Shown one piece after another: positions 54,344 through 59,234 of a stretch of 60,359 nt of DNA. Origin of the DNA: Chloroflexota bacterium. GTDB taxonomy: Bacteria; Chloroflexota; Limnocylindria; Limnocylindrales; CSP1-4. The stretch covers positions 1,259-61,617 of the forward strand of contig PLLE01000012.1 of assembly GCA_003141245.1 (NCBI GenBank). The letters run 5' to 3'. Under the pieces are notes generated by a model that worked only from the letters and a program-made list of their open reading frames with translations, did no database searches and was not told the DNA's origin. The position numbers and the translations under genes were made by a program. Numbering within the stretch: the first letter of the stretch is position 1; the number at the start of each line of letters is the position of its first letter.

Positions 54344-55159
54344 ATGAGCTTCATTCCGGGCCTGGGCATCGCAAAGGGGATGGCGCTGACGCTGCGCCGT
54401 TTCTTCCAGCCGAAGGCCACCATCCAGTACCCCGAAACGACCCCGGACATCGCGGTTCGCTTCCGCGGCCGGCTCCAGCTCCTTTACGACGAGTTCGGCA
54501 ACCTCAAGTGCGAGACCTGCTTCCAGTGCGCGCAGGCCTGCCCGGTCGAGTGCATCGACATGGGCGGGCACGACACGAAGAACCGCTTCTACACCCACTG
54601 GGGCCCGGCCGAGACGTATGGCGAGCGACGCGAAGAGTCCGCCCTGCGGCGCTCGGGCCGGCCGGTGCCCGATCAGGCCTTCGTCCACTTCGAGCCGATC
54701 GACCTGGTCGCGGTCGAGCAGATCCTGGAGCGGCGCGACTACGACCCGGGCGAGATGCTGCCGATCCTCGAGGAGGTCCAGGCCGCGTACGGCTACCTCC
54801 CGGTCGCCGCGATCAAGCACATCAGCCATGTGACCGGCGCCTCGTACGCCCTGGTCTACGGCACGGCGACCTGCTACGGCCACCTGAGCTTCGAGCGCCG
54901 GGCCCGAACGATCGGCGTCTGCCGCTGCACCAGCTGTCTGCTGGCCGGGTCCGGCCGGATCGCGACCGCCATCGGCGAGGGCCTGGGGACGAAGCTCGAC
55001 GGCGCGCCCGTCGGCGGCGTCGCCCTCCAGCAGCTCCCCGCCCACCTCCCCGGCGCGGCGTCGCCGCTCGTGACGCTGGACGGCAAGCCGCAGACCGACG
55101 TGACCGAGAGATCCGCCGCCGTATGGAGCCGCTCCCTGGCACGGAAGACCGTGGCATGA
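54344..55159 (+). CDS. Fusion: NuoI N-terminal half (one CxxCxxCxxxCP) + degenerate NuoE-like domain
   Basis: KGMALTLRRFF..KATIQYPE...RFRGR...KCETCFQCAQACP is the NuoI N-half. LPILEEVQAAYGYLP...VYGTATCY...VCRCTSC is NuoE-like; the second NuoE Cys pair is absent. Confidence 0.85.
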   Translation: MSFIPGLGIAKGMALTLRRFFQPKATIQYPETTPDIAVRFRGRLQLLYDEFGNLKCETCFQCAQACPVECIDMGGHDTKNRFYTHWGPAETYGERREESALRRSGRPVPDQAFVHFEPIDLVAVEQILERRDYDPGEMLPILEEVQAAYGYLPVAAIKHISHVTGASYALVYGTATCYGHLSFERRARTIGVCRCTSCLLAGSGRIATAIGEGLGTKLDGAPVGGVALQQLPAHLPGAASPLVTLDGKPQTDVTERSAAVWSRSLARKTVA

Positions 55160-56537: not shown

Positions 56538-59234
56538 ATGCGAGAAGCGACCCGCCGCCCCAGCCCGAGCGCTCCGCCCGCTCTTCCGAGCCCGTCCGCG
56601 AGCGCGTCGATGACGCCGCCGGCCGTCGTTCCCGGACCCCTGCCGGTCCAGGCACCTGCTCCGTCCGTGACTGGCCTCAAACCCGCCGCCAACGAGAAAC
56701 CGGTCTGGAACCGCAAGGCCGGCCGGGTCGACAGCCGCCCCGACTCGAAGGCGCCGCGCGACACGGTCACGCCGATCGACGACTCGCCCGAAGAGCGGCT
56801 CATCACGACGCAGAGCCCGCAGCGCCCGCTCTCGACGCCGACCATCAAGCTCCAGATCGACGGCCGCGAGGTCATCGGCATTGAGGGCCAGACGATCCTG
56901 GAGGTCTGCCGCGACAACGGCATCGACGTCCCGACGCTCTGCTACGAGCCCAAGCTGCCCGGCTTCGGGGCGTGCCGCATGTGCGTCGTCGAGATCGCGG
57001 GTGAGGACCGCCCGGCGATCTCGTGCGCCCGCGCCGCCGCCACGGGAATGGTCGTCCAGACCCAGACCGAGGAGGTGCGCCGGCTGCGGCGCACGAACCT
57101 CGAGCTGATCTTCAGCGACCACAACGCCTACTGCCTGCCGCCCTGCCAGAACAAGTGCCCGAGCCACATCGACATCCCCGGCTTCCTCAAAGCCAACGCC
57201 GAGGGCAAATTCCGCGAGTCGGCGCGAATCTTCAAGCGTACGATTCCGTTCCCCTCCATCCTGGGGCGTGTCTGCCCGGCGCCGTGCGAGGAGCACTGCC
57301 GCCGCGACGAGGTGGACGAGGCGATCGCCATCCGCGACAGCCACCGCTACGCCGGCGACATCGTCCTGGCGGCCCAGGAAGACGGCATCGAGCCGCCGCT
57401 GCCCTTCGAGGCGCAGCCCGCGACGGGCAAGCGCGTGGCCATCGTCGGCTCCGGCCCCGCCGGCATGGCCGCGGCCTACTACCTGCTCCTGTCCGGCCAC
57501 CACGTGACCGTCTTCGAGCGCGACGCCGCCCCCGGCGGGATGCTCCGCTACGGCATCCCGGAGTACCGCCTGCCCAAGGCCGAGGTGCTCGAGCCCGAAT
57601 ACGAGGCCGTCTGGCGGCTGGGCGCGAAGCTGGAGCTCAACCAGGAGCTGGGCCGCGACTTCAGCCTCGACGACCTGCGCGACCGGGGCTTCGACGCCAC
57701 GATCGTCGCGACCGGCTGCTACGAGACGAACAAGATCGGCGTCCCCAACGACACCGCCGAGGGCGTCATCGAAGGCCTGGACTACCTGCGCATCGCCACG
57801 TTGGGCCTGCCCTACCCGGGCCACGCCGGCAGCCGGGTCGTCGTCATCGGCGGCGGCTTCACCGCCATGGACTGCACGCGCACCTCGATCCGCCAGGGGG
57901 CGAGGGAAGTCACCCTCGTCTACCGCCGTGACATGAAGGACATGCCCGCGGCCAGCGAGACTCACGAGGCCATGGAAGAGGGCGCGAAGATGATCTTCCA
58001 GGCAGGCCCGACACGCGTCCTGGTCGACGCCCGCAACCGTGTCGCCGGCGTCGAGTTCATTCGCATGCGCCCCGGCGCTCCGGACGCCTCCGGCCGGCGC
58101 CGCCCCGAGCCGGCGCCCGGAACCGAATTCGTCGTCGAATGCGATCGCGTCCTGCTCGCCATCGGCCAGGGCCCCGACCTGTCGTGGATCGGCCCCGGCA
58201 ACGAGGACGTCGAGGCCGTCAAGTGGAAGCTCAAGGCCGACGCGGTGACCTTCGAGACCGGCCGGCCCGGCGTCTTCGGCGCCGGCGACGTCCGCATCGG
58301 CGCCGCGACCGTGGTCCAGGCGATCGCCGAGGGCCGCCGCTGCGCCTACGCCGCGGACGCCTACCTGCGCGGCATGGACCTCTCCGAGCTGCGATCCCGC
58401 GAGCCGCTGGTCGAATGGGACCCTGGCTTCCTCTCGATCGTCCCCTATACGGACGAGGTCAAGGAGCCTCGCCATCGCCTGCAGGCGATGCCGGCGGAGG
58501 AACGCACCAGGAGCTACGTCGAGTACGAGATCCCCTACACCCAATCCGAGGTGATGGCCGAGTCGAGCCGCTGCCTGCAATGCACCTGCGAGGCGATCGG
58601 CTACTGCGACCTGCGCAACCTGGGGATCGAGTACGGAACCACGCTCAAGACCCTGGAGCCGGGCCATGACGAGGGTGCCGGCTTCCGCAGCGTCACCGAG
58701 AACCGCTTCACCGGCACCAATCACGACTACGTCCGCGACGACAGCCACGCCTTCATCCTGCGCGAGCCGTCGCGCTGCATCGACTGCGGGCGTTGCGCCG
58801 CGGTCTGCGCCGACGTCGTCGGCGCGGCCTGCTACGACTTCATGCGCATCGGCTTCGACACGCTGGTGACGACGCCGCTCGACATGAGCCTCAACGACAC
58901 GCCGTGCGTCTCCTGCGGCCGCTGCGCCGAGACGTGCCCGACGGGCGCGCTCATGCTCAAGCCGCGCGTCCTGGAGAAGTACGACGTCGACGAGAGCCGC
59001 TGCATCCTGTGCGGCATCTGCGTGGACGCGTGCCCGTACGACGCGCTCCGCGGCGGCCCGGACAACGAGCTCGCCCACACCGACCGGTCCGAGCCGATGA
59101 TCGATCTCATCGGCCTGGCGGCGATGGCCGGCGAAACCGAAGTCACCTACATAGCGCGCGAGCGCGACTGGATGGCGCACGCCGTGGCCGACGGTCGACT
59201 CGCGGCCGTCGCCACCCCCGGCGACGGAAAGTGA
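56538..59234 (+). CDS. Multidomain Fe-S flavoprotein: NuoG-type [2Fe-2S] + GltD/NfnB-type FAD/NAD(P)H domain + 2x[4Fe-4S] + NuoI C-terminal half
   Basis: VPTLC...GACRMCVVE...SC; [15 protein letters not shown]...[39 protein letters not shown]...VYRR; [20 protein letters not shown]; final [30 protein letters not shown]. Start uncertain (56538 or later). Confidence 0.85.
   Translation: [898 protein letters not shown]

Follow-up and report, generated by a model that had tools for sequence, protein, structure and literature searches.

A closely packed cluster of nuo genes for respiratory complex I occupies the plus strand from position 49967 to the end of the DNA stretch analysed here (the window: 60,359 nucleotides, G000:C7:1259-61617), which belongs to a Limnocylindria bacterium of the phylum Chloroflexota whose genome is a 2.54 Mb metagenome-assembled genome (MAG) of 47 contigs and 92% completeness. 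Within this cluster the place of nuoI, between nuoH and nuoJ, is taken by three genes: gene 1 joins the N-terminal half of NuoI to a NuoE-like domain, gene 2 encodes a NuoF-like flavoprotein, and gene 3 encodes a large flavoprotein that ends in the C-terminal half of NuoI. We conclude that this arrangement is real, conserved and, as far as we searched, undescribed, and that it constitutes a variant of complex I in which one core subunit is split and the input module derives from Nfn/Stn-type enzymes. The single complex I of this organism is probably a proton-pumping, non-bifurcating NAD(P)H:quinone oxidoreductase, in which clusters N6a and N6b lie between two polypeptides and an Nfn/Stn-derived cassette sits inside nuoI.

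The two pieces of NuoI complement one another. Gene 1 begins with a NuoI-type N-terminal region and contains exactly one CxxCxxCxxxCP motif (C56, C59, C62, C66 and P67), which is invariant in 23/23 aligned homologues and accounts for all of the invariant cysteines of this protein; the chain then continues as the NuoE-like domain. Gene 3 carries, besides the paired motifs of an upstream ferredoxin-like domain, a third and unpaired motif at its C-terminal end (C822, C825, C828, C832 and P833), invariant in 19/19 homologues, such that all eight cysteines of the two orphan motifs are conserved throughout. When compared with the NuoI profile of NCBIfam (TIGR01971, 121 positions, curated cut-off 113.05 bits), residues 12-79 within the first 89 residues of gene 1 matched model positions 1-67 (55.0 bits, E 5.6e-15), and the last 114 residues of gene 3 matched positions 71-116 (57.4 bits, E 1e-15). 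NuoI was the top NCBIfam family for each of the two pieces. The agreement of both pieces with NuoI is far beyond chance. The initial annotation of this DNA had proposed that the gene after nuoH starts as NuoI with a single motif and goes on as NuoE, and that the missing half forms the C-terminus of the flavoprotein two genes on, directly before nuoJ; both proposals hold.

Similarly, among solved structures all 37/37 chains matched by the N piece are of the NuoI/NDUFS8/NdhI type and are aligned over their first half, and the C piece, when scored over a single stretch, matches best the second half of NuoI-type subunits (for example residues 93-147 of the 163 residues of 8qby_I). Polyferredoxins outrank NuoI chains for the C piece solely through the summing of up to eight repeats. 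An alignment with canonical NuoI of the same class carries the C piece through the second motif into the NuoI-specific tail and places the break point in the loop between the two NuoI motifs. This MAFFT alignment was used for the C-half and for the N-terminal 50 residues only; owing to the likeness of the two motifs it paired that of the N-half with the second one of canonical NuoI, and the N-half was instead placed by its coordinates on the hidden Markov model. The C-terminal motif groups with NuoI rather than with generic ferredoxins, as had been surmised, in the window and, once the ferredoxin domain ahead of it is trimmed off, in four other lineages: the halves from a Thermoleophilia locus (L036), a Ktedonobacterales locus (L103) and two Limnocylindria loci (L024 of family f3 and L023 of family f4) matched TIGR01971 at about positions 1-65 and 70-112, and their match lists held almost only NuoI/NdhI/HycF-type subunits.

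In proteins with a 2[4Fe-4S] ferredoxin fold, three of the cysteines that bind a given cluster belong to one motif, and the other motif supplies the remaining one. Because each of the two proteins holds one orphan NuoI-type motif and no other NuoI was found, we infer that the two halves pair in trans; to our knowledge, and as far as our literature searches went, no other 2[4Fe-4S] ferredoxin domain is shared between two chains. A prediction of the complex of gene 1 residues 1-100, gene 3 residues 735-898 and four 4Fe-4S clusters scored 0.28 and 0.29 (mark 0.32), which speaks neither for nor against binding.

A search of the window's genome for a further NuoI returned no TIGR01971 match over the cut-off. 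The two best NuoI-like places besides the halves belong to an HdrA-like gene cluster; the best match outside the nuo genes is an HdrA-like flavoprotein with a ferredoxin insert, with DsrE-like and MvhD-like small open reading frames alongside (L002, G000:C37:42186-45503). In contrast to nuoI, the complex I core genes A, B, C, D, H, J, K, L, M and N are all present as one set on contigs C7 and C35, and tblastn of the genome found nuoA, B, C, D, H, J and K each in single copy on C7. Removal of the three-gene insert would restore the nuoA-B-C-D-H-I-J-K-L order of an 11-subunit complex I, as first noticed, with the layout up to nuoK on C7 and L, M and N on C35. Among 201 genomes of the class, a set that takes in eight genomes flagged unpublished (G096, G087, G159, G123, G067, G091, G151 and G112), an intact NuoI over the cut-off was found in 6, none of them in families f1 or f2. 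Two of these six, G075 and G022, were opened, and in both the intact nuoI is part of a second, canonical nuoA-B-C-D-(E)-F-G-H-I-J-K operon; hence no intact nuoI was found to serve the split operon itself. In these two genomes the canonical 14-subunit-type operon (L120, G075:C2:1-20000; L121, G022:C21:80000-99000) exists beside the split-type one, and the G075 copy has several frame breaks.

The three inserted genes were initially taken for a foreign input module, and comparison with solved chains supports this, since genes 2 and 3 are closest to subunits of Nfn/Stn transhydrogenases. Gene 2 scored 343 bits against NfnB and 329-341 bits against HydB and StnB, versus 267 (8e9g) and 239 (2fug) against NuoF of complex I. 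Its Pfam domains are PF01512, PF10531 and PF10589 only, and it aligns with residues 107-528 of the 584 residues of NfnB 9bov_B, without the N- or C-terminal Bfu extensions. Gene 3 runs from a NuoG-type 2Fe-2S domain through a GltD-type flavin adenine dinucleotide (FAD)/NADPH flavoprotein with two 4Fe-4S sites and a Cys-rich linker to a 2x[4Fe-4S] domain and finally the NuoI C-half (PF13510, PF14691 and PF07992 in Pfam; PRK12814, E 1e-160, in NCBIfam). Its best solved relatives are NfnA 9bov_A (E 2.4e-163; query 103-832 versus chain residues 4-699 of 1178), StnC 8oh5_C (chain residues 4-700 of 1172) and NfnA 9n5u_A, whereas NuoG of complex I aligns with gene 3 at the 2Fe-2S end only. The sections of PMC11829005, PMC10482914 and PMC12018979 that name these structures identify 9BOV as NfnABC of Caldicellulosiruptor saccharolyticus and 8OH5 as StnABC of Sporomusa ovata. 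Gene 3 has the make-up of an Nfn-type BfuA, with a 2Fe-2S N-domain, an inserted GltD flavoprotein and a stretch matching HxxxCxxxCxxxCP. The formate-dehydrogenase-like C-terminal domain of NfnA and StnC is absent from gene 3, and the NuoI C-half stands in its place.

A tree of 40 NuoF-like proteins, from which L058 was left out as a weak and gappy match, gives a compatible picture. The split-type rows from Chloroflexota form one group (SH-aLRT 94) and those from Thermoleophilia another (99), and both lie among Bfu-like proteins, far from canonical NuoF, which was represented by a single outgroup on a long branch. How these two groups branch relative to each other and to soluble Bfu-like proteins is left without resolution by the tree; one clade of all 21 split-type rows was not rejected (p-AU 0.59), such that a single origin is compatible with the data, not shown by them. 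By these comparisons the module is a descendant of an Nfn/Stn-type transhydrogenase of the Bfu family and not of NuoEFG of complex I. The same genome also holds two other NuoF-like loci, which probably encode soluble Nfn- or Fdh-like enzymes: a NuoE / NuoF-GltD / NuoG-N cluster (G000:C14:50098-54405), where a 1076-residue open frame suggests a NuoF::GltD fusion, and a set of NuoF, 2Fe-2S and 2x4Fe-4S domains (G000:C21:2939-4805).

The layout is widely shared, as expected from the initial annotation if it were genuine. Gene 1 has numerous full-length homologues. A search with it returned 2874 proteins at E <= 0.001; the best 120 of these 2874 are all at least 66% identical, and the named ones among them carry the names Candidatus Limnocylindrales or Chloroflexota, which likewise holds for the fused C-terminus of gene 3. 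A relative of gene 1 is present in 192/201 class genomes, namely in 59/60 of family f1, 7/7 of f2, 59/66 of f3, 65/66 of f4, 1/1 of f5 and in the window's genome. Matches span the whole protein in families f1, f2 and f4; the description of match patterns in f3 and f4 rests partly on single matches in six unpublished genomes (G096, G087, G159, G123, G067 and G091), and all loci that were fetched and aligned come from other genomes. All 7/7 loci fetched from f1, f2 and f4, one-contig genomes included, have the order nuoA-B-C-D-H-[I_N::E]-F-[Fer2-GltD-2x4Fe-I_C]-J-K, where I_N and I_C are the NuoI halves, and across the loci of these families nuoB is 75-84% identical. An apparent fusion of genes 1 and 2 in some genera, with open frames of 690-790 residues, was rejected as an alternative frame running upstream over nuoH. 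Likewise, in G192 (L026, G192:C2:456000-475000) the NuoI N-half appears as a separate frame, and nuoC, the NuoF-like gene and the Fer2/2Fe-2S region are each broken across frames. Because several genes of that locus are broken in this way we read the separate N-half as the result of indel errors and rejected it as a natural variant. G195 also shows an apparently separate N-half in the class-wide match table.

In family f3 the operon is divided. One locus (L024 and L025) reads nuoB-nuoD-[I_N + helical part of NuoE]-F-[..I_C], and the other (L030-L032) reads nuoA-nuoC-nuoH-nuoJ-nuoK, with nuoJ directly after nuoH and no nuoI. After this division the halves stay with nuoB and nuoD, and they therefore travel with the quinone-module subunits that NuoI must contact. 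No intact NuoI was found in 3/4 f3 genomes checked; the fourth, G064 (3% contamination), has an intact NuoI beside a nuoH fragment.

To cover bacteria beyond the class, one genome per species was scanned with distant gene-1 relatives as queries, which returned 80 loci. Of these, 29 come from MAGs labelled Thermoleophilia or Actinomycetota and cover the query from residue 1; another 13 come from Ktedonobacterales, Chloroflexota or Chloroflexia MAGs, twelve covering residues 1 to about 160 and one, on the 1.8-kb contig of L113, residues 1-70. The remaining 38 loci, mostly from Bacillota, match the NuoE part only. In 12/12 Thermoleophilia-type loci examined the order is A-B-C-D-H-...-F-[GltD..I_C]-J-K, and gene 3 ends in the NuoI C-half. 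The N-half was found by tblastn in 11 of these 12; the twelfth, L070, is frameshifted, and was matched over residues 1-249 in the scan. Five Ktedonobacteria-type loci read nuoB-[I_N..]-F-[GltD...], with the I_C end present in 4/5 (L100 stops inside GltD). An intact NuoI occurs elsewhere in 3/5 of the non-class genomes checked, that is in 2/2 of the Ktedonobacteria type and 1/3 of the Thermoleophilia type. In the Ktedonobacterales and Chloroflexia loci L100-L111 nuoB stands alone ahead of the split module, and the genes that flank the locus on either side are unrelated; this variant may represent an additional peripheral arm or else a soluble sub-complex that contains NuoB.

We propose the following origin and working of the enzyme. 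A three-gene cassette from a soluble Nfn/Stn-type NADH/NADPH transhydrogenase would have interrupted nuoI in its inter-motif loop, producing two in-frame fusions, NuoI-N::NuoE-like and NuoG-N/GltD::NuoI-C. The two halves would refold in trans to one NuoI-like 2[4Fe-4S] domain, with N6a and N6b each ligated by cysteines of both polypeptides. This domain would contact NuoB, which holds N2, and NuoH as NuoI does, thereby closing the wire to N2 and bolting the NuoE'/NuoF'/GltD flavoprotein module to the quinone module and so to the membrane arm. NADPH would deliver electrons to the GltD-type FAD, and NADH probably to the NuoF-type flavin mononucleotide (FMN); these electrons would pass along the Fe-S chain of the module to N6a/N6b, N2 and quinone, driving proton pumping. 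We favour the reading of the module as a part of complex I because of the complementary halves, their co-movement with nuoB and nuoD in f3, the conserved gene order and the coupling of gene 2 to gene 1, whose stop codon is overlapped by the gene 2 start at 55156 as ATGA. The gene 3 start at 56538 has GAGG upstream.

Several observations weigh against this proposal. Each NuoI half taken alone stays under the curated cut-off (55.0 and 57.4 versus 113.05 bits), and in a MAG that is 92% complete the absence of a gene means that it was not found. Trans assembly is read from sequence, and NADPH versus NADH specificity is assigned by homology. The Ktedonobacteria-type locus carries only nuoB and the module, in genomes with an intact NuoI elsewhere (2/2 checked), and the module may there work differently or as a soluble sub-complex. 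In addition, the sites on the NADH side are incomplete. The N3/B1 motif of gene 2 reads CGKTIPC (ACGKTIPC, 56240-56262) versus the canonical CGKCxPC, and its middle cysteine is replaced (CGK[T/S/A]xPC) in 18/58 loci, the window included, all 18 of which are Limnocylindria of f1, f2 or f4. The NuoE-type 2Fe-2S site (C1) of gene 1, at 54940-55080, keeps the first cysteine pair (CRCTSC) without the second, that is 2/4 canonical cysteines, and L028, L029 and family f3 have lost the thioredoxin-like part altogether and retain the N-terminal helical part of NuoE alone. Because of this lost N3/B1 cysteine and the incomplete or missing NuoE-like 2Fe-2S site, the NADH branch may be impaired or repurposed. 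In the altered loci the N3/B1 cluster may be ligated by three cysteines or otherwise changed; most of the 18 have an extra upstream cysteine (RFCAD).

Indeed, these losses could mean that NADPH is the sole real entry point and that the NuoE-like and NuoF-like proteins are kept mainly as a scaffold or tether, or as a site for regulation or transhydrogenation that is linked to NAD+. Of the 19 Limnocylindria rows of f1, f2 and f4, 18 are without the middle N3/B1 cysteine, L021 being the only canonical one, and the NuoF-like proteins of Limnocylindria stand on long branches; in the GltD part, at the same time, 19/19 homologues of gene 3 share an invariant FAD motif (GxGPAG) and NADPH-type motif (GGGxT..D, YRR). 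We nevertheless regard a purely NADPH-fed enzyme as unlikely. Gene 2 has its FMN and NADH motifs, its FMN- and NADH-binding stretches are well conserved against NfnB, it is retained in every locus examined, and clusters with three cysteines can still function.

Conversely, the window might encode a confurcating or bifurcating enzyme that would pass electrons from NADH or NADPH together with reduced ferredoxin to quinone, as predicted for the 'Nuo-Bfu' complexes of the Geobacter type. The closeness of genes 2 and 3 to subunits of bifurcating NfnABC, Stn and HydABC would fit such an activity, and Bfu modules on complex I have been predicted in the portions of Schut et al. 2022 that treat them (PMC9304861). 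We consider this improbable, and more so than an enzyme fed by NADPH alone, given what the window has lost. Gene 2 is without the B2-B5 cluster domains, B3/B4 included, both by Pfam and in the alignment with NfnB, and has no ferredoxin or thioredoxin Pfam domains; C1 keeps half of its cysteines and B1 is short of one. According to the relevant sections of Li et al. 2025 (PMC11829005), B1-FMN-C1 is the minimal bifurcation site and the C-terminal B3/B4 clusters of BfuB reduce ferredoxin, and the parts lost or damaged here concern both this site and this ferredoxin route: the B1-FMN-C1 flavobicluster is not intact in the window, where B1 and C1 are damaged and the FMN motifs remain. Because the B3/B4 domain, an intact C1 site and one B1 ligand are lost we read the window enzyme as non-bifurcating. 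The Thermoleophilia-type proteins are more complete. P0216, P0220 and L036 keep all four NuoE-type cysteines, and the NuoF-like protein of L036 has both extra Bfu cluster domains and a canonical B1 motif, next to a NuoE-type domain with canonical cysteines. Going beyond the initial annotation, comparison of these sites indicates that the window module is a reduced Bfu/Nfn derivative, full versions of which are found in another phylum.

The three genes could also encode a free, soluble Nfn/Stn-like transhydrogenase that merely lies inside the nuo operon, its NuoI-like pieces being ordinary unpaired ferredoxin motifs. Soluble paralogous NuoE/NuoF/GltD clusters do occur in the same genome (C14 and C21), and the Ktedonobacteria-type module is found with no nuoD, nuoH or nuoJ nearby. 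Such an enzyme would, however, leave complex I without NuoI in about 195/201 class genomes, and each motif would be unpaired in its own protein. The N piece also carries the NuoI-specific N-terminal region besides its cysteine motif, the NuoI C-half takes exactly the place of the molybdopterin-like domain of NfnA/StnC, and in f3 the module has kept company with nuoB and nuoD through the rearrangement. We therefore think it very improbable that the module works apart from complex I.

Sequencing runs of 19 studies, on peat, bog, wetland and bioreactor samples, contain sequence near-identical to this stretch, three runs holding at least half of the sampled words, one of which is perhaps the source. 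Contigs of two other DNA runs and of two RNA libraries jointly cover 30/30 bins: the DNA-run contigs from other studies match pieces of the stretch with 0-4 differences, and the RNA-library contigs bridge the junctions of gene 1 with gene 2 (54802-55403), of gene 2 with gene 3 (56482-56926) and of gene 3 with nuoJ (59009-59395). These read-level data are Logan contigs, no listed piece of which spans the whole stretch, and they are no proof of transcription, of a single transcript or of expression level. That the layout could be an assembly artefact or a decaying, pseudogenised nuoI, as a MAG of 47 contigs with a break right past nuoK might suggest, is effectively refuted by the comparative data and barely credible, given intact reading frames and the same layout across two phyla (one-contig and complete genomes among them), the invariance of all eight cysteines and the matching contigs of other studies; the mis-assembly that the initial annotation had kept in view is thus excluded indirectly, by conservation.

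The features of the cluster are listed in the table below. The translation of nuoB has CCAFEMM...GDC...GCPPRP cysteines, which we take to be the ligand pattern of cluster N2 as known for complex I. The nuoD product is of the GPHHPATHG type without NiFe cysteines, and the 5' end of its gene (51621-51800) is a low-complexity extension with a TQPDGA tandem repeat. The contig terminates about 230 bases past nuoK. Upstream, a methyltransferase gene (PF02636, Methyltransf_28, E 1.6e-54) lies at 47814-49085 on the plus strand, its product carrying an N-terminal fourfold SDRS repeat; presumably it is one of the complex I assembly factors of the NDUFAF7/MidA family. Some 870 bases separate it from nuoA (49090-49960); they are 74-75% G+C, with no gene identified. 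The methyltransferase adjoins the locus in 5/27 related loci checked (L022, L024, L025, L028 and L029), and in the f3 locus L024 its homologue stands downstream of the split module (E 3.7e-52); within the ranges retrieved, loci of f4, Thermoleophilia and Ktedonobacteria showed no homologue. NDUFAF7 is also described next to 11-subunit complex I operons in Ca. Actinomarina, in the part of a preprint that deals with them (10.1101/2021.02.01.429150).

Features of the split-nuoI cluster (positions in the window unless a contig is named)
Feature	Position	Strand	Description and basis
nuoA	49967..50326	+	open reading frame; single copy in genome (tblastn); position matches related loci
nuoB	within 50206..51051 as listed open reading frame, true start probably later	+	translation; CCAFEMM...GDC...GCPPRP cysteines
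nuoC	51055..51612	+	open reading frame, related loci
nuoD	51621..52979	+	inferred start is first ATG past nuoC stop; frame open from 51360
nuoH	52990..54336	+	PF00146, E 1.2e-105
Gene 1	54344..55159	+	271 residues; NuoI N-half fused to NuoE-like domain
NuoI N-half (gene 1)	54344..54640	+	N-terminal helix region, TIQYPE, RFRGR, first CxxCxxCxxxCP at 54509-54544, beginning of inter-motif loop
NuoE-like thioredoxin-type domain (gene 1)	54713..55111	+	PF01257, residues 124-256, E 1e-16
Gene 2	55156..56529	+	NuoF-like flavoprotein: FMN/NADH site, SLBB, N3/B1 cluster region
Gene 3	56538..59234	+	898 residues; 2Fe-2S/GltD flavoprotein ending in NuoI C-half
2x[4Fe-4S] ferredoxin-like domain, NuoG/HydA type (gene 3)	58755..58952	+	PF22117 Fer4_Nqo3 and Fer4_7; cysteines invariant in 19/19
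NuoI C-half (gene 3)	58959..59234	+	second CxxCxxCxxxCP at 59001-59036, NuoI-type tail
nuoJ	59275..59823	+	PF00499, E 2.1e-32
nuoK	59820..60131	+	open reading frame
nuoL/M/N	C35:211-4738, opening another contig		three PF00361 antiporter-type genes

Compared with canonical NuoI (Nqo9, or NDUFS8/TYKY), the split subunit has the same (T/V)xQYPE and RxRG N-terminal region, two CxxCxxCxxxCP motifs and C-terminal tail, occupies the same place between nuoH and nuoJ and would be expected to carry N6a and N6b between the input chain and N2; the difference is that it consists here of two polypeptides, with the break in the loop between the motifs and a further redox protein fused to either half. Nfn-Bfu and Stn enzymes (9BOV, 8OH5 and the archaeal NfnABC 9N5U) share with the module the three-gene set of a NuoE-like protein, a NuoF-like protein and a NuoG-N/GltD fusion with HxxxCxxxCxxxCP, a motif described in PMC7483475. 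Those enzymes are themselves soluble, ferredoxin-dependent and bifurcating, and their A subunit ends in a formate-dehydrogenase-like domain, whereas here the C subunit has gained the NuoI N-half, the A-type subunit ends in the NuoI C-half, and the B subunit of the window is without terminal cluster domains.

The nearest described system is the predicted Nuo-Bfu, which the parts of Schut et al. 2022 (PMC9304861) concerned with it assign to Geobacter/Proteobacteria, Deferribacteres, Planctomycetes and Nitrospirae, with 14 subunits, A-N. There, too, NuoEFG of a proton-pumping enzyme resembling complex I would be replaced by a Bfu-type module whose genes lie within the nuo cluster; in contrast, going by those parts of the paper, Nuo-Bfu has an intact, separate NuoI, the module at the nuoEFG position, no GltD/NADPH domain, and a distribution over other phyla. 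The 11-subunit complex I-like enzymes (NDH-1, Fpo and 'NUO11'), as portrayed in extracts of PMC3144371, PMC11238625 and PMC4758237, share the A, B, C, D and H-N core without NuoEFG and have lineage-specific input modules; their input partner is in these accounts a separate subunit or unknown, whereas here it is fused to both NuoI halves. A different arrangement, in which a GltD-related flavoprotein replaces the NuoI homologue in mbx-like operons of Thermotoga, is mentioned in a passage of Degli Esposti 2015. Our literature searches returned no description of a split NuoI or of an Nfn-type module inside nuoI, in agreement with the first impression that no such complex I had been described; entries for Chloroflexota or Actinomycetota in the supplement of PMC9304861 are possible.

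If trans assembly is correct, this would be, as far as we searched, the first complex I in which NuoI and its N6a/N6b clusters are built from two polypeptides, with a natural 'split ferredoxin' as the staple. The split layout recurs in many bacteria of soil and freshwater, and automatic annotation labels the genes concerned 'NuoE', 'formate dehydrogenase' or 'FAD-dependent oxidoreductase'; when the metabolism of such groups is reconstructed, nuoI, and hence complex I, will therefore be scored as incomplete. The electron source of 11-subunit complex I-like enzymes has long been open, and in Limnocylindria, Thermoleophilia and some Ktedonobacteria, lineages that are abundant and mostly uncultured, the gene fusion physically marks an input module, which points to NADPH as well as NADH. 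The finding also links bifurcating Bfu/Nfn enzymes to respiratory complex I, since its full and reduced forms make up a graded series that bears on how the N-module was acquired. More tentatively, split NuoI may be a covalent docking device by which an 11-subunit complex I acquired a complete Nfn-type Bfu transhydrogenase, the full form being kept in Thermoleophilia and the window form being a streamlined aerobic descendant. If so, the Thermoleophilia form would be bound to the membrane, pump protons and have four redox ports, for NADPH, NADH, ferredoxin and quinone. Confurcation by this form could bring electrons of low and middle potential onto menaquinone; in reverse, it could spend proton-motive force on making NADPH or reduced ferredoxin, and the series as a whole would be a living record of N-module recruitment to complex I.

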